This document shows positions 36,021 through 57,986 of a stretch of DNA of 64,000 bases, one piece after another (the stretch's first letter is position 1; every line of letters starts with the position of its first letter). A program made the position numbers and the translations under genes. The notes under the pieces are model-generated. The model saw only the letters and a list, made by a program, of their open reading frames with translations. It had not been told where the DNA came from and searched no databases. The DNA is from Nitrospirota bacterium. GTDB taxonomy: Bacteria > Nitrospirota > UBA9217. Where the stretch lies: NCBI GenBank assembly GCA_963751455.1, contig CAVVUN010000015.1:672001-736000 (forward strand), in the 5' to 3' direction.

Positions 36021-36098
36021 GTCCCCATCGTCTAGCCCGGCCCAGGACACCGCCCTTTCACGGCGATAACGGGGGTTCGAATCCCCCTGGGGACGCCA
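36021..36098 (+). tRNA. tRNA-Glu (TTC), integration target
   Basis: Anticodon loop CTTTCAC, GGTTCGAATCC T-arm, CCA end. Confidence 0.95.
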
Positions 36099-37428
36099 AT
36101 TTACTTCTGTAACCCACGGATTTCTTAATCAGATTTTCCGTGGGTTTTCTTGTTTCTGGCCTGTTGTGAATGTCTTGTGAATGAATTTCTGTAACACTCC
36201 CGCCGTGCATCTTCCGCAGCATCTCTACTGATCGCTGAACATACTTTTTCGACATCCCTGACGTGCTCTGACCGGCCATCATTTCCATGTCCTTCTCACT
36301 GTGCCCGTTGAGTGCGTACTGCGTCATCGTCGTGTGTTTGGTTGCATTGTACACGTTGACATAAGGAACGCCGGCGCGTTTGCAGGCACGCTTCCAGATG
36401 TCATTCACAACCCAGTTGGAATACCGGGTGCCGAGTTCGTTCGGGAAAGCGATCTCTCGACCAAAGCGGCCTTGGAGAATTGAGGTATCAAAGCGAGGAT
36501 GAAGCGGAATCACGTATTCCTTTCGGTTCTTTCTCGTTTTCAGACTTCGATCAAAATCCAGACTATTCTCAATCCAGACGGTCATTGCCTTCAAATCGAA
36601 GTGCCGCACATCCAGGGCGCAGGCCTCGGACGGCCGCACAGGATGCTTAATGAGAAAGTCGATAATCGCATGATGAACCGGGTTCGTGATAGAAGCGAAC
36701 GCCTTGTCCCGGTCCTCGATCGGCATGACGCGAACCAGCTTCTCGCTGAGTACAATCGGGTCGAAGATCGGAACGATGAAATCACGCTTCATTTTGTGGA
36801 GCCAGTTACAGAAGCCGCGGAGCTGATCCATCACGTTCTTGACCGCCTTATCTGAAAGCGGCTGATCTTTATGGCCTCCGAATGGGATCCGGTATACCTC
36901 AACGAGGTGCTTCTGGAAGCGGGCGATGTCCATTGTCTCGATCTCGAGCATGTTCCGTTCGCTGAAGAATGGGATGAAATGATCCTCGCAATACTGCTCG
37001 ATCTTTCGAATATAGGAGAGCGCCCGTTTCGGTTTCCTCGAGCGAATGTCGCTCAGCCAGGTGATTTTATCAGGCCCGGGATCTGCCGTTTGAAAAAGGA
37101 ACTTCCCTTTGTATTCGTCCAGCTCAGAAGCAAGGTATTTTCTGATATCGAACCGCCGATGCTCAGTCTTGCACACGTCAAGATCGGTTCGGATACTCTC
37201 AATGACTCCATAGGCGAGACTATAACTCGAGAACATATGCCCGGTCTTGTAATACCGGCTGATCACGTAGGGCTTGTGGGTGACTTTATCGTAAAAGAAG
37301 ATGTAGACCTTATCGGGTTTTGTTTGGCAGGTAGGACATATTAAAGCAGGTGCTTTTCCGACAAAGAGCTCCTTGAACTTTCCGGCGCAGACAGGACACA
37401 CTTCGCGGGTACGGACTTGTCCGCTCAT
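36058..37428 (-). CDS. Tyrosine integrase with N-terminal CxxC/CxxC zinc ribbon; reads through attL into the tRNA
   Basis: VRPSEACAL (Arg I), K, YNATKH, MAGQS, KKY; GGAGG RBS before ATG 37428. Confidence 0.88.
   Translation of the reverse strand: MSGQVRTREVCPVCAGKFKELFVGKAPALICPTCQTKPDKVYIFFYDKVTHKPYVISRYYKTGHMFSSYSLAYGVIESIRTDLDVCKTEHRRFDIRKYLASELDEYKGKFLFQTADPGPDKITWLSDIRSRKPKRALSYIRKIEQYCEDHFIPFFSERNMLEIETMDIARFQKHLVEVYRIPFGGHKDQPLSDKAVKNVMDQLRGFCNWLHKMKRDFIVPIFDPIVLSEKLVRVMPIEDRDKAFASITNPVHHAIIDFLIKHPVRPSEACALDVRHFDLKAMTVWIENSLDFDRSLKTRKNRKEYVIPLHPRFDTSILQGRFGREIAFPNELGTRYSNWVVNDIWKRACKRAGVPYVNVYNATKHTTMTQYALNGHSEKDMEMMAGQSTSGMSKKYVQRSVEMLRKMHGGSVTEIHSQDIHNRPETRKPTENLIKKSVGYRSKLASPGGFEPPLSP
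36164..36185 (+). repeat. Arm-type integrase-binding repeat (left)
   Basis: TTGTGAATGTCTTGTGAATGAA; copy with one mismatch at 56075-56096. Confidence 0.75.
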
Positions 37429-37666
37429 GTTATGGCCCCCCTCCTCAGTCTTCTGGTGGGGGTGATTGTAGGCTATGTCCACGCCTAAAGTCAAGCTGCC
37501 GTCCTCGATTGTCCTCAACCGCACTGGATTTGGAATCCAGCGGGGGATTTTAGAAATCGCAAATTCAAAGAGTTACGACCCTTATGCCACCTGTATGCTC
37601 GCGACCTTTTTACTGAAACCCGCTGGCCATTCGCCGTAATTACCGTCCATCTTTCAATATTGAGTT

Positions 37667-39223
37667 CTAGACGGTTCTATCCGACCCTATCACCTGTGAA
37701 GTTGCACCCAGCTGTATGAGCGCCTGGTTTGCATTGAGTGCTCCGGCGATCGCGGTAGCCCAGATGTTACCGCCGGCCTTCGCAGTATCAGCTCTGATCT
37801 CCATTGACGCGATAAGCGCCCTCACCGCCAATTGGGCCTGCTGCGCAAGTATCTGCGTCTGGAACTCAGCTGCCCCTTTCGTAAGTCCTGCGACGGCCAC
37901 CCCGACATCCGCACGCGCCTTCTGCAGTCCGACCTCTGCCGAGTACGCCCCGACCTTGGCCCCGAACGCAGAACCTTTCGCGGCTATCACCGAGGCAAGC
38001 CCTTCGGCCTTGGCTTTGAGCGCCTGCATATACGAGTCGAATTGCTTTAAGATAGCCATGTTCTTCTCTGCCGTGGCCTTGAGTTTTTCAACCTGCATCA
38101 TGGCGTCCGTTTTAGCGTATTCAAGGCTGAGTCCGTAATCGGTCTTTTCCTTGTCAAGCTTGGCCGTAAACGCCTTTAAAAGCATCTCGTTCTTGGAAAT
38201 CTGATGCCCTAAAAGGGCAAGCTGCACATCAGCAGCCTTTATGAGCGCCGATACCCGTGCAGCATACTTGGATATCCATGCGTTATAGAAGCCGAGAGAA
38301 AATTCGAAGACCGACCGCATGGCCGTCAGCGCCCGATTCTTCACCTGGTCGTAATGCTGGACCTCGACAGCCAGGACCTGAAGCATGCTCGACGTGGTGA
38401 ACTGCTGGTTCTGCAGGCTCATCTTTGCCTGGTCTTCGGCTACCGACCGGGACTCGTCCATTTTCTTATACCCATACTCGGTTTCGAATGCAGTGACTGT
38501 CTGTTTAAGAGTGCCCTGCGGCAGATCCCACCCAAAACGCGCATGATCATCGGCCATCTTCACGACCGTACGCTGCCGGATAAGTTCGTCACGCTCGGAC
38601 ATCCGATCCCATATCTGTCGCTCAACCGTGGGGTTGATACCCGTTACGCCGGCGGCCATGTCCGCAGTAAGCTTCGCATAGAGTGCGGTTGCGCTTATTG
38701 ACGAAAGGCTCTCGTTCTCTGCCTGGTATAGGCTGTCCTTATACGAGGTGATCGCGTCCTGGATAACGGTCATATCGTCCGACATCTTGATATCATTAAG
38801 GCTATCGGGATCAAAAAGGTCATCCGGGTTCGGTAAATCGATTTCTTTAAAATCCTTCAGGTCTTCCGTTGTCGGCGGCGCGTCGACTGTCTTGATATTA
38901 AGTGAGTCGTACGGATCCAGCGTGCCAGAAGGAGTTGGCGGCGTAGCACCGTTAAAGTCAATAGCTCCGATCTGCGACTCCTGCTGTGCGGTGTCAAGAT
39001 TGGCCCGGACAGTAATCGTCGTTCTGGGGTCGCTGATCAGCGTCTCCGGACTCGGCGGCGTCCATTGAAGCGCCGGAATCTCTACATTCGGCAGGAATAA
39101 TGAGGTTGATATCTGCTGCAGGGCTGACAGAAACTGCGCTGCGTTATCTACGTTTTCCGTTACATTCTGGTTGAGCGTTGCAAGCCGCTCGCTAACCGCC
39201 GCATTGACTTCTTCAACTGACAT
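37667..39223 (-). CDS. ~520-aa Ala-rich coiled-coil protein, possibly virion-associated
   Basis: Long helical ORF with GGAGG RBS, downstream of the terS-like gene; function is inferred only. Confidence 0.55.
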   Translation of the reverse strand: MSVEEVNAAVSERLATLNQNVTENVDNAAQFLSALQQISTSLFLPNVEIPALQWTPPSPETLISDPRTTITVRANLDTAQQESQIGAIDFNGATPPTPSGTLDPYDSLNIKTVDAPPTTEDLKDFKEIDLPNPDDLFDPDSLNDIKMSDDMTVIQDAITSYKDSLYQAENESLSSISATALYAKLTADMAAGVTGINPTVERQIWDRMSERDELIRQRTVVKMADDHARFGWDLPQGTLKQTVTAFETEYGYKKMDESRSVAEDQAKMSLQNQQFTTSSMLQVLAVEVQHYDQVKNRALTAMRSVFEFSLGFYNAWISKYAARVSALIKAADVQLALLGHQISKNEMLLKAFTAKLDKEKTDYGLSLEYAKTDAMMQVEKLKATAEKNMAILKQFDSYMQALKAKAEGLASVIAAKGSAFGAKVGAYSAEVGLQKARADVGVAVAGLTKGAAEFQTQILAQQAQLAVRALIASMEIRADTAKAGGNIWATAIAGALNANQALIQLGATSQVIGSDRTV

Positions 39224-39629
39224 ATACACCTCCATTTAATGTTGCGTTTTGTTAACATCTTCAGCCTTACTCAACGGGTCCGACGCGCTGCCAGGCAACC
39301 CGCTACTGCCCATGTCATCTAGGCAATAAATCTGAGATTTTCACATGAACTATATTTAGCTGCGACCTTAACAAACCTTAACAACCTCACTGCTTCAAGA
39401 GTCGGAACGTTAGCTTTTGTTAACAGGCCATTGGTTTCCGACCATTTCAGACAAAGGCGACTTGATCCCTGGTTGCGAGCCGTACACGATTCCACATCTT
39501 CTCGATAAAAATATCGGTAAATATCGGTTTCAAAGCTCACTAAGTCGAGAATCTTTCACGTTAATTTCGTGGCAACGAGTTTTAAACAATGCGGCCAGTG
39601 ACTCTCCAAAGTGTCGGTTTTTCTCCGGG

Positions 39630-39899
39630 TCAGTCCTCGTTTCCCACCTTGTCCGACTTCCCGATGAAAGCAAGCTCTTCGTCGGTCACATGCATTCCTT
39701 TTCGGAGATAACCTTCGATCAACGCTCTCCGTACCCGCGGTCTGTTCCGGACCAGGCATTGCTTGCTGCGCGCAGTTGATCTCTTGTAGCCGGCATCCAG
39801 CATAGCGCCCGTATAACACTCGCCGTCGAGAAGGGCCTGCACGAGCTTCCGCTCTTTTTCGGAGAGGGTCTCAATTGTCTTGGGTTTGTCATTGACCAT
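39630..39899 (-). CDS. Terminase small subunit-like HTH protein
   Basis: LSEKERKLV..LL.G...T.AM.DAGY...TA resembles the TerS N-terminal LTxKQ..F...AA..AGYS..TA pattern; GAGG RBS. Confidence 0.55.
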   Translation of the reverse strand: MVNDKPKTIETLSEKERKLVQALLDGECYTGAMLDAGYKRSTARSKQCLVRNRPRVRRALIEGYLRKGMHVTDEELAFIGKSDKVGNED

Positions 39900-40359: not shown

Positions 40360-40944
40360 TTATTGAAGTGCCTGTACCGCTTCTGGAAAGGTTGCCCCGT
40401 ATAATTTCCGGTAAACGTCGATCGTGTCCGCTGTCTTGCCGCAAGAGAAGCAGTAGGCGAAATTATTCTTGATGAACATGCTCGGCCTGTGGTCTTCATG
40501 AAAGAGGCAGAGAGCCATTCCGCGGCGCGCATCAATGAAATTATCTATCGGGTATGCTTTCGCTCGCTCGATCATGTCAGGCGTGACGGTGTCTTGTTTC
40601 GGTTTCTGTCCGAATGCTTCGAGCCCCTTTTCGAGCAGATAATCACGCTCTCGCTTTAATTTATCCTTGTTCTTCATCAGTCTGGCTACGCGGTCCGCTA
40701 TCATGTGGCCGCTCATCAAATTTGTTTTGTGCTTCTCATAGCTTATCGATGCATCGAGCAGATGGTCTTGAATTTCTGCGATCTGTTCCATTAGAGCGAA
40801 AATCCGCAACCATTCCCCCTCGCGGGCCATCTCGTTTTTATGTTCGTGAATCCGCGCGCGGACTCTCGGCATATCTACAGCGTTTCTCCACTTTGTGAGC
40901 GCTGCATCACTTATCACCATTTCCTGATATTCGAGGTCGGTCAT
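40360..40944 (-). CDS. CHC2 zinc-finger protein (primase Zn-binding domain, no TOPRIM)
   Basis: CLFHEDHRPSM...YCFSCG...DTID......TF.EAV..L. Confidence 0.85.
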   Translation of the reverse strand: MTDLEYQEMVISDAALTKWRNAVDMPRVRARIHEHKNEMAREGEWLRIFALMEQIAEIQDHLLDASISYEKHKTNLMSGHMIADRVARLMKNKDKLKRERDYLLEKGLEAFGQKPKQDTVTPDMIERAKAYPIDNFIDARRGMALCLFHEDHRPSMFIKNNFAYCFSCGKTADTIDVYRKLYGATFPEAVQALQ

Positions 40945-40966
40945 GGGCGCCCCTGCTTCCTGGCCT

Positions 40967-41812
40967 TCAGCTTTTCATGGTGCATCTGTCTGTATTCCGG
41001 CTCAATTGTTCTTTCCCTGAGATCCTGAGATAAGGTCCTATCTTCGTGACGTTCACCTTCTTGTTCTTCGCTCCTGTAGCTCGGCACTTCGCAACCTTCA
41101 GAACTGCGTTGTCTCCGCCATCAAGCCGCCATATAAAAACAACCGTGTCCGCTTCCTTGCCGATCATGCCCGAATCCCGGAGACTCCTGATCGTCGGTTC
41201 CTCTGCCGCTTCGCTTCTATTCGTGTGAACGATCAAGACAATGATCAGATTTTCGTTTATCGCCAACAATTTGAGCTTCCGGCATATCCGGCCCAGATCG
41301 TTCGACAGGTTCCCGGTTTCTACCTGGTCGGACAAATAGTGGAGGTGGTCTATAAAAACGGCGTGAATCGTTTTATATTTCAGCTTTGCCTCCCTGATTC
41401 GTTCGCCGATCCAAGTCAACGTGCTCATCTCAAGTTCTGCCGGTAACATAAAATACGGTACTGCCTCGCCGAATTTTGCTAGAAATTCATCCGGCCTTTC
41501 TTCATAACTAAACCACAGGCATCCTGCGTCCTGTTCTGAAAAATTATTTGTCAGTGTACGAGCTAAAAGTGTTTTCCCTTCTCCCTCATCCCCGCTCAGG
41601 ATTACGAGCTGCCCGCCGCGGCAATCCCGGATATGATCGTCAAGGCCCGGGATCTTGGTTCTGAGGACTATTGTCGGTTCGAACTTCTTTTCAGCGTGGA
41701 GCTGATCAACCTTATCCCAGGAGGTAATCACCCGACCGGGTCCGCAATAGCTCTTGAGTTCCGCGTCTGCCTTTCGGCGTTCGTTGTCTTTGATGATCTC
41801 TTCAGGGTTCAT
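40967..41812 (-). CDS. DnaB-like SF4 helicase (C-terminal ATPase domain only)
   Basis: GDEGEGKT, FSYE, FIDHLH, LKLLA, LRDSGMIGKEADTV, KVAKCR. Confidence 0.88.
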   Translation of the reverse strand: MNPEEIIKDNERRKADAELKSYCGPGRVITSWDKVDQLHAEKKFEPTIVLRTKIPGLDDHIRDCRGGQLVILSGDEGEGKTLLARTLTNNFSEQDAGCLWFSYEERPDEFLAKFGEAVPYFMLPAELEMSTLTWIGERIREAKLKYKTIHAVFIDHLHYLSDQVETGNLSNDLGRICRKLKLLAINENLIIVLIVHTNRSEAAEEPTIRSLRDSGMIGKEADTVVFIWRLDGGDNAVLKVAKCRATGAKNKKVNVTKIGPYLRISGKEQLSRNTDRCTMKS

Positions 41813-42987
41813 GCGTATTGCCTCTTGTATCCGGGAACCATGCTGCTCTGTGATTCCTGCCTTTCAGGATTCACATGCTCCTTGTAAATATGAATCTTAT
41901 TCTTCCCGGTACCGCTTACGATAAACCGCACAGCGTCCTTAATTCCGAACCGCGGCTTTGTCGCTGCAAAATTACGAGCCGCCAAAATAGCGTTATCCTG
42001 TTCCTCGATATTTAGGCCGTTGAAAGCCGCTGCTGCTTCCTGCTTAGAACCCTTACGCCCGTCTTCTCTCGCTGGGTACGCCGTCCAGAATAATAGAAAC
42101 TTGTCGCTGTATTGCGGGTCTCCCTGTTCTGTCGGCTTTTTTGGTGTTCGTGTCTTCTGGCGCCTTTGGCGTTCGGGCCCCGTGACCTGGTGAGTTCGGC
42201 CGGCTTTCGTGGGATTCGCGTCTGTCTCTGATCCGGACAAAATAAGACTCTGTGCGTGCGCAGGAGCTAAATTTACAGGCTCTGTTCCATCAAGACGTAA
42301 AGAGATATCAGGTTTGCCCTTTGATTCGGTCTTTTCACGATCGATATCAGGCAGCGTTGAACCGTCTTCCGGTGAAACGCATTCTTTTGTTTGTTGTATA
42401 AGTGTATATTGTGGTCCCGGTTTTCCGTTACTGCTGTCCGGTTTTCCGTTACTACCTACAGCTGAGTAACGCTTTTCCGTTACAGTAACGGTTTTCCGTG
42501 ACTTCCCCTTTTGGGAGATGTTTTTCCACTTCGTATAGTCTTTTTGAAAGCCTACTTTTGCTCCTGATCGTGTCAGGATATTTCTCTCGCAGAGATCCTT
42601 GAAGGCCTCATATACCCGCTGCTTTTTAAGGCCGGTTTTTTCAATAAACTGCTCGTATGCAATCCAATCAAGCTTCTTGTCCCATCCATAAGTTTTCCGG
42701 AAAACGACCATCAGTATTCGCCAGCCATGGCCACTGATTTTCACCCTGGCAAGAGCTTCAAGGATCTCATCGGCGATCTTCGTATAGCCGTTCTGAAGTT
42801 GAGGGCTTGCACCCATCCTCATTTCCGATTCTGGTGCCCCTGCTTTGATTGCCAGCCGTGAAGAATCTATCTCTGGCAGCGGTGGTAGAAGGGCGCCGAT
42901 CTCCGACACTGCCCGTCCTTCTTTCATGGCACTAAGCGCCCAGTGCGGGAGGTGGAATCTATCATGATGTTCATCTCTGGCCAGCAT
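41809..42987 (-). CDS. Lambda O-like phage replication initiator
   Basis: NGYTKIA.EILEAL....S....RI...V.RKTYGW.KK.DWI...QF...TG; C-terminal FW..YP...K..A motif; GGAGGTG RBS. Confidence 0.85.
   Translation of the reverse strand: MLARDEHHDRFHLPHWALSAMKEGRAVSEIGALLPPLPEIDSSRLAIKAGAPESEMRMGASPQLQNGYTKIADEILEALARVKISGHGWRILMVVFRKTYGWDKKLDWIAYEQFIEKTGLKKQRVYEAFKDLCERNILTRSGAKVGFQKDYTKWKNISQKGKSRKTVTVTEKRYSAVGSNGKPDSSNGKPGPQYTLIQQTKECVSPEDGSTLPDIDREKTESKGKPDISLRLDGTEPVNLAPAHAQSLILSGSETDANPTKAGRTHQVTGPERQRRQKTRTPKKPTEQGDPQYSDKFLLFWTAYPAREDGRKGSKQEAAAAFNGLNIEEQDNAILAARNFAATKPRFGIKDAVRFIVSGTGKNKIHIYKEHVNPERQESQSSMVPGYKRQYA
42417..42502. repeat. Iteron array, probable replication origin within the O-like gene
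   Basis: Four TTTTCCGT(T/G)AC units, the first two exact CCGGTTTTCCGTTACT 21 bp apart, next to an AT-rich tract at 42381-42410. Confidence 0.8.
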
Positions 42988-42994
42988 ATCAAGC

Positions 42995-43234
42995 TCACCT
43001 CCTCGCAGCATACATCTTCGCACGCAAGACCTTATAGGCTGCGATAAAATCTTGGATCGGCACGCTTTCGTTCCCGTTGTATTTAGCGATGATAGCATTA
43101 ACTTCGTCAGAGGAGGCGTGAACGAAAACTGACAGATCCCGGTCAACTTCGAGGTTAGGCGCTTTTCGGGTGATTGCGAAGATCGCGGAGGACAGAAAGA
43201 TATCTCTTGTCTTGAACTGTTGGCTGGTAGGCAT
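42995..43234 (-). CDS. DUF5659-like small phage protein
   Basis: F.TRDIFLSSA...F...Y.....V....F...YK.LR pattern; AAGGAG RBS; first gene of the replication operon. Confidence 0.55.
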   Translation of the reverse strand: MPTSQQFKTRDIFLSSAIFAITRKAPNLEVDRDLSVFVHASSDEVNAIIAKYNGNESVPIQDFIAAYKVLRAKMYAARR

Positions 43235-46580: not shown

Positions 46581-49500
46581 TCATTCCCCTAAGTCTGGCA
46601 AAAAGAAAGTGCGTTCCGATTCTGAGTATTCCCCATACTCCTTCTCGCGGTCCCAAATGCGCAGCCGTATAAAGAAGGCGAGCTTGCGCCCTAACCGTTC
46701 CATTGCGTCGGTGAGCAGCTCCTGATCGATCATGGTCGCCGTGCCGCAGCGCGTCGAACCTCCCTTCGGGTACAGCGGAGTCCAATTGTCGTTCCATATC
46801 CGAGTTCTCGAGGCAATCTTCCCGTCGGATGCGATACAGTCGATACTCTCCCGTGTACATCGGATTTCGGTTTTGGGAACCGTATAAGAGGCGGGAACCT
46901 TCAGCCCTATGGACAAATAGTCGCTTTGCCATGTACCAAACGGTATTGGTATAAGGGAATTGCAGACAGCAACCTCGTCACCCGTTTTACCTCCAGAGCT
47001 TGCTTCCTCGATCGTGATCTCTTCTGGCGGCCCCTTGAGTTCGAAAGTGTCATTAACAAACAGTAATAAATTTTTTTCGTAGAGGTAGGCACTATCAGGT
47101 AGTTCATAATCAGGCGTTATGAGGTGGGCACTGAGGGTAAGGTCGGCATACTTCTGCACCAATGACGTTACTGGCGTATGGAGCGACACGAGCATCATGC
47201 CTTCAGCGCGTGCTGTCTGCACGAGCTCGCGGACGATAGGCGAGAAATTAGCGCCGGGAGCGCAGAATCTTTCAGGGAAGTCCGAGAGCCACACCGGCCT
47301 TGCGACAGGTTCGACATCGAAGAGACCTGCAATCCCGTGAACGATGTCGACGCAAGAGCCTTCCGCGATCCTCTGGGGCATACGCAACTCGCTCACGGCA
47401 TAAGCCAGAGTCCGCAGATAAGCGGAGCGATAGACCTCGCTCATACGCTGCCAGTACTGGCCAATGATTCCCGCACGTGCGTCTGATACGTTGTCGAAAT
47501 AATACGGGTAGCGCGTGTAGTGCGTGCCCAGCTTGTCTCGTAAGGTTTTCCACTCATAGGCCCAGTGCTGGAGAAAGGGGTAGCCGCTCAAGAGTTCCAG
47601 CTTTGTCAGATTGTTCATGAGGATCGGTGGAACATGCGCGGTCTTGTGCTCCTCGAAGTAGCTATCGCTCTCGAAGTCGGCCGGAGCCCGTCCCGAGTGA
47701 GCCTGGCGCCATCCGCCGATGCCGTGCCCCTGTCCATAGGTCCGCTCCAGAATGATGTCGGCGAGAATCGAAGGGCAATGGAGGCGCGATGCGAGCACCG
47801 TGCGCAAGGGTCTACCGTCTGGCGATGTCAGGAAGACGATCGTGAGGATCTGACAGACTTCAGACTCGGTATTACACTGATCGAGATAGTCCAAAAGCGC
47901 GTCCTCCGTTGAGGACCGCGTCCCCGGATCATTGAGAAGGTTGCGGATTTCCTTGGCCGTTCTCCAGCGCGACATTGGCACTGGCCATTTCAGCCGCTCG
48001 AAAAGGAAGGAAAGCGCGAGAGGGGCCGAGGTTGCTAGGAACCATGGTGTCGCCGGGATCGGCTGCTCTCGAACCTCCTCAACCAACGTGTCAACGAAGG
48101 CAGCCGTGATCTTGTCGGCAAGTTCCACCTGCCCGACGAGCATCAGGAAGCGCACCAAGTATTTGTAACCAATGACGAAACTGTAGCGTCGGCGTCGGTA
48201 ATAAGGAAGGGGCACCGACGTGTCCTTGATGTATTGGAGCCAGCGATCCGGATAGTGCTTTGCAGCGAGCCTAATTCGCGTCATTATTTGAGCATCTGAT
48301 TCATAGTAGCTCCAGCCATGGCGATGAATGTGAGCTTTGACGAGCCATGGGTATGCAGCGTCCTTACCTTCGACAGCGAGGCTCACGAGGAAAGCTTCGT
48401 CTAGGACTTCCTCAGCGCTGTAGGTTGTTTCGCTCGTGTCGAAATAGGAGAGGATCGATTGCAGAGCTTTTGATGTTTTGCCCTGGCTCTTCCAGTGATG
48501 GAGCCACTTCGCCATGAATTCCCTGCGGCTCCTGTAATGAAGGGGCACCGCTGCTTTAGCGACGGCGGCGAAATCCTCATAGCTGAATGATGTGGGATCG
48601 ACCTTAGCAGCCTCTTTCTCCTGCTCGGAAAGCTCTTCTTCCTTAGTCTCTTTGATTTCGAGGCCAACTTTGGGCGGTCGGCCTAGAAAGACATTCTGAT
48701 TTTCTAGAAGCTCTTGGGCGGGCTGTTCATTGACCGCTCGGCCCTCGAGAACCCCTAGAGTTCGCTCGTCTAGGAATGTGCGGGCCAGTGCAGCACCTTG
48801 CGGAGATTTGAGATCCATAATCTTCGCGCATTCGTTCAGACACTCGTCGGCATAGGAATATTCGTCCGCCGAAAGGTGATGTCTATAGATGGATGGCAAG
48901 TGGTCGGGTGCAACCTTCGCCACGACTTCGATAAGTTCAGAACGCACGTGATTCGTATCGTCGCCGTCTGTGAATTCCGTGATCATCTCGATAATCGGGA
49001 CGAGCGTTTCGACGTGTGTCCGCGCGACAGCCGGTTTCCTCGCGCTCAACTCGACAACGGCATCGAGCACGTCCATCGCGTGGAGGTCTTTATGCGAGCC
49101 ATATCCGACAAGGCATTCGGCAGCGTGTGCGAGAAACTCGGCCTGTCTTCCATCCTCGTAGAGAAGCGCCATGTTTGCGAGTTCCGTCCAGCGCCCTGAA
49201 CGCTCGCTGAAATCCGTCACCTTCCCTGACAGCGCTTTCGCCTCGTCACCAAGAAGCACCGCCACACCATCTTTATCGAGGAGAGGAATCCTGTTTCCCA
49301 CATTACGTGTCGCCCAGATCGTGTCAGACCAATGGTCGGATTGGCGCGCTATGCTCAGCTCCGAGACAGGCACCCTAGTATTGCTGGGATCGGAAAGTCC
49401 AAGGAAATGAAGATCGACACCGATACGCCGGAGAGCCTCGCTGAAGGCTCGATATTGTGCGGCTTCTTTTTCGGGAGATGGACCCCAATGGACAGGTTCC

Positions 49501-52412
49501 AGATCAGCAGTAGCCGCATACACGGCTGAGAAGGTTGGAACAAGGCGGCCTGCTGCAATGTCCCGTGCAATCTCTTGGAGTTTTGCCGTTCCCTGCGGTA
49601 GCCATCCCAGATCGGCGCTGCCGAGACCCGGATGGATCATTGAATAATCGCCGCCCTTCGCACAAAACCCGATGTACAGAGCGGTCCAAAACACGTCGTA
49701 AAAGAAGGATATGACGTCCGGGTTCTCTCCGAGTGAATAGTGCTCCCGGATGAGGTTGTTGGGCACCGGAGGGATATACACATCTATCTTTGCGTCGCGA
49801 TCGCGCCAGAGGAAGAAGCATGCGGCAAAGGCCGAGAGGGACTCGTTACCGAGAGGAACGAGTTCTCTGACATCCACGCCTTTGAAACTGCCCGCCCGTA
49901 TGAGCGCGTCGTGGATTAACCGCCGCTGATCGTTCCACTTGGCGCCGCCTAGCGTTTTGCGGATAAGCTGAAGCCCCTCGATGTTTTGCGCATCACCAAG
50001 CAGACGGATGAACCTCGAGACATGGGGCTCTGGCTTCTTGAAGCCGCGCGCATAGTTTAGCGTGCGCCGCACTGTCTCCTTATCCATCAGCGCACTAACC
50101 GAGAGGAGGTGATCCGAAAGCTCCGTGAATTCCCGCTCGGGACGGTGCCGCAGCACGATCCATGCATTGACGCGGCGGGCCAGTTCATTGAGGCATGCTG
50201 GCAAGATCTGAAGTGACATTTCTTTTGGCCCGAGTCGGGCGAGTTGTGTTACTTCGCTGTCGGTCAAATTGTGGATGTCGTCTAGAAGATTCAGCGTCTG
50301 CTGACGGTTGTCGGAAACCGCAAGCGCAGTCGCTCGGTAAGCGGCAAAATCACTCGATTGAAACTCGCGGGCGTTTGAAACGCGGGTCTTCAGACTGCGA
50401 AGAAATACTGTTCGCGACAAGTCTGCGTCTTTGAAGGTCTTCTCTTCAGCGACGGCGAGTATATTTTCAATCTGCTGATCGGGCCAGCCCTTCGCGAAGG
50501 ATTCGACGACCCAATCCCGCGTTGCGCCTACGAACAAATCTTCGAAATGGCCTGCTTGCGCCCCTGCAAGCCATAGCCAGCCCCATCGCCAGTATTCAGG
50601 CGCATCATTCGCGAGCCAGTTGATGATCTTGGGCAGGAGTGCTTGATAACTTTCCGCATGGTCATCCCGCTCCCGTACCCATGCGAAGATGCTCGAGTGG
50701 AAAGGGACCATGCCGACATTGCGTGGCTCCAACAGGTGGTCGATCTGGCTGAAGTCCCCTAGCACCTGCCTTATGCCGAGGCTTGGCCAGAAGAAGTCCG
50801 ATCCCGCGAGCATGTGGAGAGCGTTCTTGGCATCCGCGCTGAGGTGAACCCAGAGCCCCCGATAGTAGGTACGGATATCGCCATCCGGACACGGCGGGAG
50901 CAATTGAATTTCCTCCGCAGACGTTGGGCGGCCTGCGCGGATAACACCCTCGTATGCGTAAATCAAATGCAGCGGGTGGCCCTGGCTGATATTAAAAAAC
51001 GCTGTCGCGATCTCGTCGATCATTTCAGAACGCCGCTCGGGAGGCGGATCAAACCGGAAGATGAGTGGACGCGCCTTGAACTGCTGCACCACCCAGCGGT
51101 GGACCGCGACCTCGTCCATACGCGGAATCTCGCTCCAGTCATCGTCATTCGCGATCGTCAGCAGCTTGCCGGGCAGCTGCTCGTCACTGACGCGCTGCGT
51201 TCCGACGATAAGATTGACATTTGGCGGTAGCGGGAGCAGTTCGTTGAAGAGGTGATTGAGTTGGTCGACGCGCTGCGTGTCGCGCCAAACGTGATCGAGT
51301 CCATCGACGATGATATAAAGCCGCTGACCTTTGCCGGCGAGGTTGGTTGCAGCAATCCCGATGGCGGCCCGCAACTCGCTAGGATCACCCTTGACGCCGG
51401 CCATGGCTTCAGGATGGCGCACATAGAGCTGATCCATTAGCGAGGTCGAAATTTCGATAAAAGAGCTGCGGTTGGAACTCGAGTCCTCCGCTGACAAAAA
51501 GTAGTGGTGTCGCGTTATGGCCGCGCCTTCCTTTTGAAGCTCCTGGGTCAGATAGCTGAGGTAGGTGCTCTTCCCGCGCCCTGGCGTTCCCCAAAGGATT
51601 GTGATCGGATTGTCGTCCCTCGCGATGCGTGCACGAAAGGTCTTGTGGAAGGCCTCGCTCGGCGGGCTGTAGCCGTCGAGGACGATAAAATCCTGTCGGA
51701 TAGGTTGCGGGCGGCGCTTCGTAATGAGCTGTACAAGATGCTCCCGCAGAATATGTCCATCGGGTTCAGGCTGGTTTTTGCGGGTCGCCCAACGACGTAC
51801 GCTCTCGCGGAAAAGAAGCCAACCCGCCGAATCAGTGTCTGTAGGTACGAGCTGATCGCGAAGATAGTCTTCGTATCTGTCGAGGTCCGGCATACCTCCT
51901 AAGAAATCGAACGTACTGAAGAATGTTTTAGCCTCGGCGGCGCCTCCGCATGCGCTCTCAACTGACTCGCGAAATTCCTTTGGTAGGAGGTCAAGGTCGA
52001 CCCGCATGCCTTTCAGGCACTTTGCGAACTCCCCAGACGGTATGCGGTTTGTTTTAAGACCAGCACTGTGGATTGGACCCATCGCTGCCACACGGGCAAG
52101 GGACTTCGCCCACTTTTCGAGCATCGCCGTCCCTTTTTCAGTTTTGGCGAGAAGCCAGTCCCAATCCAGCTCGTAGCGGCCGGGGTCGACCGTGAACTTG
52201 ACCTGTACGAGCTCGTAGGAACCATCTTTACGTGCAGCCACAACGTCGTCGAGCGCTCGGTAAGCCGTGTCGTCGGCCTCGAGCAGCACCCACGCGTAGA
52301 GCTCAGGGTCTCGGTACTGGCGAATAAGCACCTCGATACCGACGAGGTCTTGGTACTCGAAAGCTGCTCTTGTTATCGCGGCGGGCTTTATCCGGGATTT
52401 TGCCATTGTCAT
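46581..52412 (-). CDS. PD-(D/E)xK nuclease - STAND/NACHT NTPase - helical sensor protein (Avs-like anti-phage candidate)
   Basis: N-terminal FEYQD...LDDVV...VQVK; Walker A GTPGRGKST; Walker B YIIVDGLD; GHPL; long helical C-terminal region; intact 1943 aa. Confidence 0.8.
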   Translation of the reverse strand: MTMAKSRIKPAAITRAAFEYQDLVGIEVLIRQYRDPELYAWVLLEADDTAYRALDDVVAARKDGSYELVQVKFTVDPGRYELDWDWLLAKTEKGTAMLEKWAKSLARVAAMGPIHSAGLKTNRIPSGEFAKCLKGMRVDLDLLPKEFRESVESACGGAAEAKTFFSTFDFLGGMPDLDRYEDYLRDQLVPTDTDSAGWLLFRESVRRWATRKNQPEPDGHILREHLVQLITKRRPQPIRQDFIVLDGYSPPSEAFHKTFRARIARDDNPITILWGTPGRGKSTYLSYLTQELQKEGAAITRHHYFLSAEDSSSNRSSFIEISTSLMDQLYVRHPEAMAGVKGDPSELRAAIGIAATNLAGKGQRLYIIVDGLDHVWRDTQRVDQLNHLFNELLPLPPNVNLIVGTQRVSDEQLPGKLLTIANDDDWSEIPRMDEVAVHRWVVQQFKARPLIFRFDPPPERRSEMIDEIATAFFNISQGHPLHLIYAYEGVIRAGRPTSAEEIQLLPPCPDGDIRTYYRGLWVHLSADAKNALHMLAGSDFFWPSLGIRQVLGDFSQIDHLLEPRNVGMVPFHSSIFAWVRERDDHAESYQALLPKIINWLANDAPEYWRWGWLWLAGAQAGHFEDLFVGATRDWVVESFAKGWPDQQIENILAVAEEKTFKDADLSRTVFLRSLKTRVSNAREFQSSDFAAYRATALAVSDNRQQTLNLLDDIHNLTDSEVTQLARLGPKEMSLQILPACLNELARRVNAWIVLRHRPEREFTELSDHLLSVSALMDKETVRRTLNYARGFKKPEPHVSRFIRLLGDAQNIEGLQLIRKTLGGAKWNDQRRLIHDALIRAGSFKGVDVRELVPLGNESLSAFAACFFLWRDRDAKIDVYIPPVPNNLIREHYSLGENPDVISFFYDVFWTALYIGFCAKGGDYSMIHPGLGSADLGWLPQGTAKLQEIARDIAAGRLVPTFSAVYAATADLEPVHWGPSPEKEAAQYRAFSEALRRIGVDLHFLGLSDPSNTRVPVSELSIARQSDHWSDTIWATRNVGNRIPLLDKDGVAVLLGDEAKALSGKVTDFSERSGRWTELANMALLYEDGRQAEFLAHAAECLVGYGSHKDLHAMDVLDAVVELSARKPAVARTHVETLVPIIEMITEFTDGDDTNHVRSELIEVVAKVAPDHLPSIYRHHLSADEYSYADECLNECAKIMDLKSPQGAALARTFLDERTLGVLEGRAVNEQPAQELLENQNVFLGRPPKVGLEIKETKEEELSEQEKEAAKVDPTSFSYEDFAAVAKAAVPLHYRSRREFMAKWLHHWKSQGKTSKALQSILSYFDTSETTYSAEEVLDEAFLVSLAVEGKDAAYPWLVKAHIHRHGWSYYESDAQIMTRIRLAAKHYPDRWLQYIKDTSVPLPYYRRRRYSFVIGYKYLVRFLMLVGQVELADKITAAFVDTLVEEVREQPIPATPWFLATSAPLALSFLFERLKWPVPMSRWRTAKEIRNLLNDPGTRSSTEDALLDYLDQCNTESEVCQILTIVFLTSPDGRPLRTVLASRLHCPSILADIILERTYGQGHGIGGWRQAHSGRAPADFESDSYFEEHKTAHVPPILMNNLTKLELLSGYPFLQHWAYEWKTLRDKLGTHYTRYPYYFDNVSDARAGIIGQYWQRMSEVYRSAYLRTLAYAVSELRMPQRIAEGSCVDIVHGIAGLFDVEPVARPVWLSDFPERFCAPGANFSPIVRELVQTARAEGMMLVSLHTPVTSLVQKYADLTLSAHLITPDYELPDSAYLYEKNLLLFVNDTFELKGPPEEITIEEASSGGKTGDEVAVCNSLIPIPFGTWQSDYLSIGLKVPASYTVPKTEIRCTRESIDCIASDGKIASRTRIWNDNWTPLYPKGGSTRCGTATMIDQELLTDAMERLGRKLAFFIRLRIWDREKEYGEYSESERTFFLPDLGE

Positions 52413-52562: not shown

Positions 52563-53198
52563 CTATAACCCAAATTGCAGCCGTGAAACTGCATCGATCT
52601 TCTTTTCATCGGATGTGTGGAGATACTTTTCGGTCGTCCGAATGTGACTGTGGCCTAAAAGTTCTTGAACTGTTCGCAGGTCAACGCCCTTGTCCAAAAG
52701 GGATGTAGCAAAGGTATGTCTCGTCGTGTGCGGCGTGATCCGCTTCGTGATGAGCGCCGCCTTCTTTACCCTCTTCATAAGGCAGTCAACGGCCTTGTGC
52801 GTGAGGGGCACCGGTTCGCAGTTGCCGCGCTCACCCAGGGTGAAGAAGAGCGGCCGGGCCGTGGCCGGTGCGCCGGCTCTGTCCTCGAAAAGATGAGGCA
52901 TACTGCTCTTGAGGGCCTTCTGATAATCGAGGACCGCCTCCACAACGTCGTTGGTGAGAGCAACGCGCCGTTGCTTCTTTCCCTTGCCGATCACGTCTAC
53001 AACCGTCTGATTCCGATATGTGGTCAGGTTCTCGATACTCAGGCTGCATACCTCGGCCTTTCTGAGGCCCGAGGAAAGCATAAGGAGTAGCAGGGCATAA
53101 TCACGCTTGCCCTTGAGGGTCCGCCGATCCGGGACCCGGAGGAGGGCTTTGACTTCATCCGCAGTCAAAAAATCCGATGGTCTCTTTATCTTTTCCAT
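52563..53198 (-). CDS. Minimal tyrosine recombinase (catalytic domain only, resolvase-like)
   Basis: RD.ALL.L...GLRKAE, GKGKK.R, HTTRHTFAT, LLGHSHIRTT.KY. Confidence 0.9.
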   Translation of the reverse strand: MEKIKRPSDFLTADEVKALLRVPDRRTLKGKRDYALLLLMLSSGLRKAEVCSLSIENLTTYRNQTVVDVIGKGKKQRRVALTNDVVEAVLDYQKALKSSMPHLFEDRAGAPATARPLFFTLGERGNCEPVPLTHKAVDCLMKRVKKAALITKRITPHTTRHTFATSLLDKGVDLRTVQELLGHSHIRTTEKYLHTSDEKKIDAVSRLQFGL

Positions 53199-53658: not shown

Positions 53659-53832
53659 TTATTTTTTCTTTGGCTGAAACTCAAAATCTTCCTCCGGTGC
53701 CGGGCCAATAACGGCAATCGGCTTTCCATTGAGTGTAACGACAAGTTTTTTCCCTGTCTTGTTCACTTCTGATAAAATCTTCTTCGCATCGTGTTTAAGT
53801 TCAGAAATCGTGATGAACTTCAGCGGTGACAT
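53659..53832 (-). CDS. Phd/YefM family antitoxin-like protein (57 aa, below ORF-track cutoff)
   Basis: Translated by hand: MSPLKFITISELKHDAKKILSEVNKTGKKLVVTLNGKPIAVIGP...; GGAGGTG RBS. Confidence 0.8.
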   Translation of the reverse strand: MSPLKFITISELKHDAKKILSEVNKTGKKLVVTLNGKPIAVIGPAPEEDFEFQPKKK

Positions 53833-53851: not shown

Positions 53852-53887
53852 ATGACCAAATTTAGACCTAATTTAGTCATTTGTCAA
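53852..53887 (-). promoter_or_regulatory. Promoter with inverted-repeat operator
   Basis: TTGACA-17-TAAATT overlapped by ATGACCAAAT...ATTTAGTCAT. Confidence 0.6.
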
Positions 53888-54120: not shown

Positions 54121-55149
54121 ATGATCACACCTCAAACTCATCGCGCTCGTGAAATTCTCCAAGCTGTTGGTCGCGCATATCCGTCTGCCTGGCAAATGGC
54201 CGATCGTGTTAATGCAAACCGCGATATAGCCCTGCCAGGTTGCCCGCGGTGGTGCTATCTGCCGGTGCATGCAGCGCGTGCTATTACGGAGGATGGCGGA
54301 CAGAATCCAGCGTCGATCGATCGCATGCATCATGTCGCTATTATCGGCGCTCTTGCCGCCTGGCGCATGGGGCAGCAAATCATCCGATATGACGGCTCTC
54401 TCTACAATTCGCTCGTTGAAACGCCGATAACAGGCGATTTGCCCGCAGAGCTCCTGTATCGGTTGCCCGCATGGTGCCTGTACATCGAGACCCCTGGCCT
54501 CTCCTGGATGGGCCGCCAACTGCATGGTTTTTTTGTTCACCTCGACTGGGACAAACGAGGCCATAATGAATTACGCTTTCTTCTTGATACCGTAGAAACA
54601 ACGGATGCACTGTTCGACTTCAGGTACGGTCTGATTCCGAATCCGCTTATACTCGGAAACGGTACTCTTGCGGACGCCCTTGAACGTGTAGTTGCTTTCG
54701 GAAAACTAAATGCGGAAAAAGCAGGAATTGAGCTTGAGCTGAGCAGCACTGTCGATCAAATGGCGGAGTCACTCTCCACGGCACTCTCGCCGCTTATCTC
54801 GCTCACTCTTTATCTGTGCAGCGACTCTCCGGACTGGGATCTGGAGCCGCCCAGGAACCCGACCCCGGTAAAGACCAAGCGAGGACTGCGTACATTTCCC
54901 GTCGCACAGCCAAGGATATGGGACGTAGGCGTCAGAATTGGAGCGGCTCTGAGAAAGGCCGTAGCCTCTCCCCGGATGGAAGAGGTTGCAGAGGCCGAAC
55001 ATGCATCGCCTCGCGCTCATATTCGCCGCGCTCACTGGCACACTTATCTGACCGGTACCGGTCGCAGCAAGCGAGTGCTGAAATGGCTGCATCCTATGCT
55101 TGTTAAGACTGATACCGTGGAAGATTTCCGGCAACGATACGCAGTGTGA
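54121..55149 (+). CDS. AcrVA2/FinQ family protein
   Basis: AAWR...I.RYD, LPAWCLYIE, GFF, LYLCS..PD, G.RIG, PRAHIRRAHWH.Y.TGTG...KW..P, colinear with AcrVA2 as I recall it (RPHIRRGHWHGYWQGTG). Confidence 0.8.
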   Translation: MITPQTHRAREILQAVGRAYPSAWQMADRVNANRDIALPGCPRWCYLPVHAARAITEDGGQNPASIDRMHHVAIIGALAAWRMGQQIIRYDGSLYNSLVETPITGDLPAELLYRLPAWCLYIETPGLSWMGRQLHGFFVHLDWDKRGHNELRFLLDTVETTDALFDFRYGLIPNPLILGNGTLADALERVVAFGKLNAEKAGIELELSSTVDQMAESLSTALSPLISLTLYLCSDSPDWDLEPPRNPTPVKTKRGLRTFPVAQPRIWDVGVRIGAALRKAVASPRMEEVAEAEHASPRAHIRRAHWHTYLTGTGRSKRVLKWLHPMLVKTDTVEDFRQRYAV

Positions 55150-55167
55150 AAGAAAGGGAATCGTCAG

Positions 55168-55527
55168 ATGAAAAGAGATCCTGAACTCATCAGAAATATC
55201 ATGCTTGAAGTTGAAAAAGTGCCCCCGGGAAAGCATGTGACAGCATTGTCTTTTGACGATATCGATAACCAGACTATCATTCAACATGTGGTGCTTTTGA
55301 TAGAAGCAGGACTGTTGAGCGGCAACTTTACGAAAGTGATATCCGGTCCAGCGGGTTTTAGGATTACCGGCTTGACATGGTTTGGACACGACTTTGTCGA
55401 CGCCGTGCGTGAGCATTCCATTTGGAAAGTGATCAAAGATAAAGTTTTGAAACCGGCTGGCTCATGGACATTTGGCTTGGTTACAGAGGTAGCAAAAGAG
55501 GAACTGAAGAATCGTTTGGGTATCTGA
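55168..55527 (+). CDS. DUF2513 domain protein
   Basis: MKRD.ELIR.I.L.VE, H..LL.EAGL, LTW.GHDF.DAVR...IW..IK. Confidence 0.8.
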   Translation: MKRDPELIRNIMLEVEKVPPGKHVTALSFDDIDNQTIIQHVVLLIEAGLLSGNFTKVISGPAGFRITGLTWFGHDFVDAVREHSIWKVIKDKVLKPAGSWTFGLVTEVAKEELKNRLGI

Positions 55528-55923: not shown

Positions 55924-56202
55924 ATTTCCCTCCTGAATTTGATGTTCACATTGAATCGTGATTGCCATGCATTCTAGCAGAGAGAAGCAAACTGTTCGGG
56001 CCAGACGAAAGCGAATCCAGCAGGGATTGCGGTTGGGGAGCTTCGGGCGATGAGGCGGCTCTGATCGAGTCATCTTGTGAACGTCTTGTGAATGAAAAAA
56101 AGGTCTATCCGTATGTTCTTTTTGCTCTTAACTGCTGGAAATATTGACTTTTTCTATTCTTCCTCAGGGGGTTCGAATCCCCCTGGGGACGCCAATCAAT
56201 TC

Positions 56203-56238
56203 AGGAGTTACCGGTTTCCGGTAGCTCCTTTTCTTTTT
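56203..56238 (+). terminator. Terminator after attR
   Basis: aggagttaccgg-ttt-ccggtagctcct followed by a T-tract. Confidence 0.7.
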
Positions 56239-57114
56239 ACTGTGCTGAATTTGTGCTAATTCCCCCGGACTCTTCCCCAAATGTGTTACGTTCAACTCTT
56301 GCCCGTCTGGTCCTTCCTAAAATCGAAATTTTTTTAACTTAGCTTTCCTCGCGTGACTCCCATGAGAGATGAACTGCTGGGGTCCGCTTGTTAATGCAGC
56401 GAGACGCCCGAAGCGAAGGAGGCGGGCTTCCGGGTTACGATCTGTCTTACTGTGGGGGTGCATGCGCTCGTGCAGGTGCCGGAGGCGCTCACAGGCTGGC
56501 AGGATTACAGCGGACGGCTATCCCGCGACTGGACATCTTCGGCTCCCTGCCGGGGTTAGAAAGTGCTTACTCGCGCCTGGCGCTTACGACGAGCGTAGGC
56601 GCGAGCAGCAGTCCCGCCCTACACTCGCGCGGTCGCACTCGTAAACGCGGGGTGCAGGCGCGAGGTCGCGTTATTTAGTCCCGACAAGTCGAGACGGTGA
56701 TCGAGGCTCCTCTGGGATACGTTCTTCTGGTGCAACTGCTTTCAAGCTGGCAGGGGAGAAGCATCTCGTTCCGGAGGAGCAACCTCTAACTTCCTCATTT
56801 TCTAAAGAGGACTACAAATGCGACCTCCCAGCGGTTCACGACGCACTACGACGGCCGGGGCCGGGGTAGTGCAAGTCGCGGGATTCGAAGTGATTTACGA
56901 GACCGACCCGCGCAGACCCGCTCCGCCATGTCATCCTCTGACTCTGCTTCTCGGAATATGAGGGGTTTCACGATCCTGCTGCCGGAAGAATATTAGTCGC
57001 GTTCACTTCCCCGGATTCGGCCGGGGGGACCTCTCCAAAGGGCTTCCATTTCCCTTTGATTTTATGTTATTATCATACAAAGTATAGAAGATGAAGGCTA
57101 GTCAAGAGGTGCAT

Positions 57115-57435
57115 ATGCTGCCGGTGGAAAAAACAATTCTCGATAGATTCAAAGCCCTTCTTGCCGCACGTGTAAACGTGTATAAGCTGATTCTATTCGG
57201 TTCTCGTGCCCGAGGCGATGCGGAATTTTCCTCAGATATGGACGTCCTGGTCATTCTGGAGGGTTCGCCTTCCGAGAAGGATTTCGATGTTGTCAGTGAC
57301 TGTGCATGGGAAGCGGGATTCGTACACGGGATCGTAGTCGTACCGGTCGTTTATTCGAGAAACGAATGGGAAAACACTCCTGAGCGCTATTCCCTGCTGG
57401 CCCGTGCCGTAGAAAAGGATGGAGTTCTCGTTTGA
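57115..57435 (+). CDS. Minimal nucleotidyltransferase (MNT) antitoxin-like protein
   Basis: LFGSRARGD...SDMDVLV. Confidence 0.9.
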   Translation: MLPVEKTILDRFKALLAARVNVYKLILFGSRARGDAEFSSDMDVLVILEGSPSEKDFDVVSDCAWEAGFVHGIVVVPVVYSRNEWENTPERYSLLARAVEKDGVLV

Positions 57436-57836
57436 AAGAACAGGAGATCGAAGACCTCGTACGCCATCGAATGGAGCAGGCTGCAACGGCTCTAGCTGAC
57501 GCAGATTTTCTCTTGCAGGGTAATCGCAGTGCGCAAAGCATCGTCAACCGGGCCTATTATGCCATGTTTTATGCCGCGCTCGCTCTTCTTCAAAAAGCAG
57601 GGAAAGTACCCTCGAAGCATGTTGGTGTGATAAGCCTCTTTGATACGGAATTCGTTCTGAAAGGCATGTTGCCGAAAGAGCTCTCAAAGACTTTTCATAA
57701 AGCCTTTGAGCTGCGACAGGTATCAGACTACAAGAGCGTTACTCACGTATCAAATGACAAAGCTGTAGAAACTCTTCAGAATGCAAAACGATTTGCAGAT
57801 GAAGTGCGTGTTTTTCTGGCTAAGCAGTCGTCTTAA
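57432..57836 (+). CDS. HEPN domain protein
   Basis: NRAYYAMFY, SKH.GVISLF..EF, RQVSDY; overlaps the MNT stop. Confidence 0.9.
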   Translation: MKEQEIEDLVRHRMEQAATALADADFLLQGNRSAQSIVNRAYYAMFYAALALLQKAGKVPSKHVGVISLFDTEFVLKGMLPKELSKTFHKAFELRQVSDYKSVTHVSNDKAVETLQNAKRFADEVRVFLAKQSS

Positions 57837-57986
57837 CAAAACTGTTTGGCTTCCCGTTTTTTATGCTTTTACCGTTTGTAAGGTTAACAAGAGACACTTT
57901 GAGCAGATTGACTCTTATTGATACCCGCCATCCTGTACACCTCAACCTCCATTCGCACACCTGCCGTTCAATGATTCGGAGATTCA

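Follow-up and report, generated by a model that had tools for sequence, protein, structure and literature searches.

An AcrVA2/FinQ-family gene on a phage-derived tRNA-Glu element of a Nitrospirota bacterium: a putative nascent-peptide silencer that may act on a rival mobile element

What would a relative of AcrVA2 and FinQ act upon in a bacterium in which no cas12a gene was found? According to a preprint, AcrVA2 binds the nascent N-terminus of Cas12a, leading to loss of the mRNA, and FinQ decreases the mRNA of F transfer genes, which provides a precedent for action on a rival element (bioRxiv 10.1101/2022.11.29.518452). The target of the many AcrVA2 homologues that reside in Cas12a-free hosts is described there by the discoverers as an open question. 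A gene of this family lies in the stretch of DNA analysed here (the window, 64,000 nucleotides), within an integrated element with the following features.

36021..36098, plus strand: tRNA-Glu gene, the last 28 nt of which are the left att core (36071-36098)
36058..37524, minus strand: phage-type tyrosine integrase (phrog_1, E 3e-20)
37667..39235, minus strand: 522-aa phage protein, function unknown (phrog_10969, E 3e-21; viral clusters in Atlas)
39630..39899, minus strand: small-terminase-like (TerS-like) gene (phrog_641, E 7e-6)
40360..43146, minus strand: replication module with primase zinc finger, DnaB-like helicase and replication protein O-like gene
46581..52412, minus strand: 1943-aa STAND/NACHT NTPase, predicted Avs-like defence protein
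52563..53198, minus strand: short (catalytic-domain) tyrosine recombinase (PF00589, E 9e-37)
53659..53832, minus strand: solo Phd/YefM-family antitoxin-like gene (PF02604, E 3e-9), divergent from the AcrVA2/FinQ-family gene
53852..53880, no strand assigned: 11-bp inverted repeat with 1 mismatch over the predicted phd promoter, ~240 nt from the AcrVA2/FinQ-family start
54121..55149, plus strand: AcrVA2/FinQ-family ORF as assembled, 342 aa, the final 7 aa out of frame
54361..54393, plus strand: W81 and D91, equivalent in the alignment to AcrVA2 W79 and D89
55018..55041, plus strand: HIRRAHWH box, aa 300-307; H300, R302 and H305 are equivalent to AcrVA2 H286, R288 and H291
55126..55128, plus strand: site where one base shifts the frame away from that of P0121 and of the family tail, probably through an assembly error
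55168..55527, plus strand: DUF2513 gene, 119 aa, predicted winged helix (PF10711, E 4.7e-24)
56167..56194, plus strand: right att core, which repeats the last 28 bp of the tRNA-Glu gene without a mismatch

Sequence comparison and a predicted fold together make the window protein a true member of the AcrVA2/FinQ family, and its membership is secure. AcrVA2 (7CI1) was the single phmmer match among solved structures, colinear over aa 77-329 with an E-value of 1.9e-13. This bears out an earlier note, made from the letters of the window, that had described motifs colinear with AcrVA2, including an HIRRxHWH box. The same note had suggested a profile or BLAST comparison with FinQ as well, and this is also significant (tblastn, 26% identity over aa 75-333, E 2e-16). 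The fold agrees. The AlphaFold model (pLDDT 90.4) has AcrVA2 as its sole fold match, with E 4e-15 against 7CI2 in Foldseek and with Z 23.9 and an rmsd of 3.2 over 272 aligned residues in VIA, where the runner-up reached Z 4.9. In the preprint, the substitutions W79A, D89A, H286A, R288A and H291A are each listed as causing AcrVA2 to lose function (Marino et al., bioRxiv 10.1101/2022.11.29.518452). All five of these residues are kept in the alignment with the window protein, once the mapping is corrected for a one-residue offset of the PDB chain. The AcrVA2 mutant that corresponds to H300A here stays stably bound to its target.

Plasmid records with a tblastn match numbered 558, and Enterobacterales plasmids made up 35 of the 40 listed, at ~26% identity and with 33 labelled finQ. 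Nineteen phage records matched, one of which carries an AcrVA2 annotation. The PHROGs match, phrog_6160, is annotated as of unknown function. No family was assigned by the Pfam-A, NCBIfam and PADLOC profiles; the precomputed PF26125 assignment is present on all 120 homologues listed, the window protein among them. Single-sequence scans of viral contigs returned no match for this protein or for DUF2513.

With AcrVA2 of Moraxella (7CI1/7CI2) the window protein has in common the fold, the W/D and HxRxxH residues, a similar size and a mobile-element location. It differs in sequence (~22% identity), in having a host with no cas12a found, and in the LPAT(I/V)R C-terminal tail of its family, which is missing from the AcrVA2-like Moraxella protein; a partner resembling AcrVA1 was not noticed. 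With FinQ of IncI plasmids it shares, besides the matched region, the His box, a similar C-terminal tail and the character of mobile conflict cargo. Unlike FinQ, it has a different N-terminal domain and is carried by an integrated phage-derived element rather than a conjugative plasmid, and no VirB4 was found in the host. A quick tree of 90 rows, which omitted short rows, rows without the His box and most viral rows, clusters the window protein with P0002-P0004 (support 100). In this tree very long branches lead to FinQ and to the AcrVA2-like Moraxella phage protein, and the placement of both is unsure; the window protein thus cannot be called closer to one than to the other.

The reading frame of the gene bears on what follows. 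Its start is supported, since the same Met opens the homologues. An LPAT(I/V)R-type tail closes 100 of the 118 listed homologues with a His box, and past codon 335 of the window ORF this tail sits in another frame. The window protein shares its 90% cluster with a second protein, P0121, which comes from a Logan assembly and is 354 aa long; the two agree residue for residue across aa 1-335, and in P0121 the tail is in frame. Read in the same intact frame, the window gene would encode 354 aa, stop at 55182-55184 and overlap the DUF2513 gene by 17 nt. P0121 does not look decayed: of the 68 conserved columns in an alignment of 67 sequences, it differs from the consensus in just 3, which puts it at the well-conserved end of a range of 0-12. 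One departure is W41C, a Cys where 99% of the aligned homologues carry Trp. Judged from these comparisons, the frameshift in the window copy is probably an assembly error, because P0121 is intact and identical to aa 335 and because the host's type I-E cas1 is likewise split across frames. That cas1 (L002:11690-12614, G000:C2) lies over two frames despite its 167-repeat array, possibly through an assembly indel of its own. The earlier note had placed the DUF2513 gene 18 nt downstream; the gap is real as the window reads, but it hinges on the frameshift and is probably an artefact, since the intact frame ends inside the DUF2513 gene.

The gene is on a mobile element, bounded by att repeats and equipped with an integrase. 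The 28-bp repeats enclose approximately 20 kb and had 0 matches in shuffles, and a terminator-like hairpin (56203-56229) follows the right att core. The AcrVA2/FinQ-family gene was found in 1 of 400 genomes of the phylum and in none of 60 relatives searched; for the left half of the element, a DNA search of 60 relatives gave no meaningful match. The ORFs scanned on the element include no capsid, portal or large terminase, and no Terminase_6N match was obtained in the host genome. The element could therefore be satellite-like or a deleted prophage, as its gene content suggests. PICI-like satellites are defined by integrase, replication and packaging-interference genes in the absence of a full virion set. 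The window element resembles them in its size of ~20 kb, its integration at a tRNA gene, its integrase, replication genes and TerS-like gene, and its STAND defence gene. It is unlike them in its lambda-O/DnaB-type replication, in lacking an AlpA match and in having no identified helper. No toxin match lies beside the solo Phd/YefM-family gene (53659-53832). Just beyond attR, at 57091-59903, the window contains an MNT-HEPN pair and a PrimPol-helicase gene with an in-frame stop near 58811.

The immune systems of the host narrow the choice of target. Completeness of the host genome is estimated at 100%, and its two CRISPR arrays, of 167 and 86 repeats, adjoin cas operons of types I-E and I-G; there are only two cas1 loci. 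PADLOC candidate defence genes PDC-S02, S05 and S13 also lie inside both cas loci (L002:9755-10636, L005:2788-4692, L005:12127-12870). A profile search detected no cas12a in the host; as a positive control, the same profile exceeded its cut-off in 2 of 400 phylum genomes. When two Cas12a and three Cas12b proteins served as tblastn queries against the host, no match fell below E 0.03. Cas12b was not found in the host, in a profile search that covered three genomes, and neither was the TnpB/Cas12f zinc finger, for which the control was positive in 8 of 14. Within type V, the host negatives thus cover Cas12a, Cas12b and TnpB/Cas12f. The earlier note had entertained a Cas protein as target and had pointed to cas12 and self-targeting spacers as the things to look for. 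The Cas12 option is weakened by these searches, and among the 251 host spacers even the one closest to the element has 10 mismatches. Against the rest of the genome the spacers gave short or dispersed partial matches and no full-length self-match.

Our preferred reading, with a rough probability of 0.55, is that of an AcrVA2-family gene on a phage-derived tRNA-Glu element, acting by nascent-peptide mRNA silencing and with a rival element favoured as its target. While one particular target is being translated on the ribosome, the window protein would bind its nascent N-terminus and so trigger decay of the corresponding mRNA. Work on AcrVA2 from 2026, in the summary given by an editorial, describes ribosome association via the C-terminal part and the use of a cellular nuclease (PMC13728456). 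We infer that the mechanism is shared with AcrVA2 but that the target is another, because the C-terminal His box and the fold are kept and the rest has diverged; by analogy with AcrVA2, mRNA decay is likely to have carried over. The target of neither AcrVA2 nor FinQ can simply be transferred, because identity is 22-26% and both lie on long branches far from the clade.

That the target is something other than Cas12a is probable, because the host has types I-E and I-G, no Cas12a, Cas12b or TnpB/Cas12f was found, and no spacer is directed against the element. It would most plausibly be a gene of a rival mobile element. A rival element is our first choice because of the FinQ precedent, the lack of Cas12 and the lack of self-targeting, even if it takes somewhat less than half of the weight when spread over all options. 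Two homologues located just upstream of intact cas12b-CRISPR modules, described below, fit a role as co-packaged conflict cargo. No resident rival or helper is evident in the host, because neither VirB4 nor Terminase_6N was matched.

Host type I or other defence genes are inferred to be the second choice of target after a rival element. The same mechanism would then be turned against a Cas protein of the host's type I-E or I-G system, or against a different host defence protein. The host does have I-E and I-G loci with long arrays, the carrier is phage-derived, and the family usually occurs in Cas12a-free hosts according to the preprint (bioRxiv 10.1101/2022.11.29.518452). Against it, the spacers include none that matches the element and give no full-length self-match in the rest of the genome, and we regard anti-defence as unlikely, if still worth weighing.

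A genuine Cas12a inhibitor, idle here and useful in other hosts that the element visits, is more doubtful. AcrVA2 is stated in the preprint to work on divergent Cas12a orthologues (bioRxiv 10.1101/2022.11.29.518452), and the phylum does have Cas12a in 2 of 400 genomes, with an (L/V)SKT motif at the N-terminus. Of 3786 host ORFs scanned for LSKT within their N-terminal 45 aa, one contained it, an ABC-ATPase-like ORF that we judged a chance match. Against such an inhibitor, Cas12a was found in 0 of 63 same-family genomes and 0 of 74 distinct homologue-host genomes (for the latter, completeness is not given), and in the tree a long distance separates the protein from the AcrVA2-like sequence. The result for homologue hosts agrees with the preprint, which places AcrVA2 orthologues typically in hosts without Cas12a (bioRxiv 10.1101/2022.11.29.518452).

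The gene that follows raises another possibility. It is a DUF2513 gene, as the earlier note had named it, and that note had further placed it in the position where Aca regulators occur. Under this proposal DUF2513 would be a new Aca family that represses an acr-like promoter. As in known acr-aca operons (Aca1-13), a small predicted DNA-binding gene lies directly 3' and is likely co-transcribed, because the intact ORF overlaps it; a purine-rich, ribosome-binding-like stretch precedes its start. The DUF2513 model is winged-helix-like, although its Foldseek matches, to PadR/MarR types, are weak: the best has E 5e-3 and none reaches 1e-3. No match linked DUF2513 to any known Aca family. We surveyed 151 homologue loci, comprising the best 80 of 251 genome stretches and 71 viral loci, of which 140 had at least 400 nt downstream. 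HTH-type genes come next at 6 of the 103 loci scored. The pairing with DUF2513 itself is not conserved, unlike that of acr-aca operons: the domain occurs in 0 of the 151 loci and in 0 of 128 downstream ORFs at the 103 scored loci. The core promoter of Aca operons holds an inverted repeat (PMC9410906). Within 150 nt of the AcrVA2/FinQ-family start, inverted repeats did not exceed the level of shuffled sequence. The sole notable repeat (53852-53880), whose observed count was reached in 3 of 100 shuffles, sits on the divergent phd promoter and is more probably an operator for Phd than a site for an Aca protein. The Aca role of DUF2513 is thus unsupported, an acr-aca operon is improbable, and a literature search on DUF2513 found nothing relevant. 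The boldest combination would be that of a satellite-like element that silences a new class of target, either a type I-E/I-G Cas subunit or a helper-phage gene, through an AcrVA2-family peptide-guided mRNA silencer, under the control of DUF2513 as a new Aca. We consider it a long shot. If true, it would together with the cas12b-adjacent homologues turn the family into a general means by which mobile elements silence specific genes and also tune their own effectors.

The gene might also be a self-regulator that damps a potentially toxic gene of its own element, such as the STAND NTPase. The earlier note had stressed that the two share an element, and they do lie between the same 28-bp att repeats; homologues directly upstream of cas12b in two other genomes point in the same direction. 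The pairing itself is not conserved. The NTPase and C-terminal parts of the STAND protein had no match in the 151 homologue loci, and its N-terminal part had one marginal match (E 0.003). The association therefore looks like co-location of cargo, with the STAND NTPase, and DUF2513 too, probably carried independently of the AcrVA2/FinQ-family gene, and self-regulation has little to recommend it. The N-terminus of the NTPase has a weak match to a Cap4/SAVED-PD-DExK-like nuclease, and its match to Avs1b is weak and far under the cut-off; it is possibly a less studied Avs type, to judge from these profiles. Homologues covering at least 80% of its length are present on 13 plasmids at 26-30% identity, annotated merely as ATP-binding or hypothetical proteins.

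Least probable is a decaying, non-functional cargo gene with a real frameshift, for which the assembled frame and W41C speak, but P0121 is intact, the split I-E cas1 fits assembly indel errors, and the AcrVA2-like Moraxella protein is without this tail anyway.

The preferred reading of a silencer aimed at a rival element places the window gene in a known and very large family, to which it adds one more member. The gene is of a known kind, because about 5,700 clusters exist (5,725 at 50% identity in a profile search) and occurrence without Cas12a has already been published. Gene neighbourhoods at the 151 loci are heterogeneous. Beyond the preprint, the literature on AcrVA2 homologues with FinQ yielded nothing (bioRxiv 10.1101/2022.11.29.518452), and the clade or the cas12b neighbours may already be in its supplements (extended alignment, ortholog tables). 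Each new specificity in the family would be a protein-sequence-guided mRNA knock-down tool. As a test case the window gene is clean and apparently intact, and the CRISPR systems of its host are only type I; its clue to the target is limited to excluding Cas12 in the host, and thousands of candidates are its equal.

The cas12b-adjacent homologues are a more unusual observation than the window gene itself. In two genomes a same-strand cas12b is preceded by an AcrVA2-family gene, which is 54 nt upstream in one (L048:7962-16978, G061:C33) and 33 nt upstream in the other (L060:7968-13300, G062:C55). The two Cas12b proteins (1220 and 1227 aa) are 72% identical, match PADLOC profiles at E 1e-118 and 1e-106, and have the RuvC D/E/D motifs. 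CRISPR arrays of ~54 repeats (L048) and approximately 6 (L060) follow, and no cas1-sized gene was seen adjoining either module. The repeats of the L048 array (L048:12899-16978) are unusually variable over its full length. Tn7-like tnsA-B/tniB genes are nearby, and L043, a sister locus, shares the backbone but lacks cas12b. At the cas12b loci the AcrVA2-family gene would either regulate the Cas12b of its own element or be conflict cargo packaged with it. A search for an anti-CRISPR adjacent to cas12b in Planctomycetes found nothing beyond one review. Elsewhere in the family, several genomes have two or three AcrVA2-family genes on different contigs (L040, L062 and L064; L075 and L079; L025 and L076). 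Four proteins of 505-540 aa (P0217, P0221, P0225 and P0238) carry N-terminal extensions of 160-230 aa without a Pfam match.
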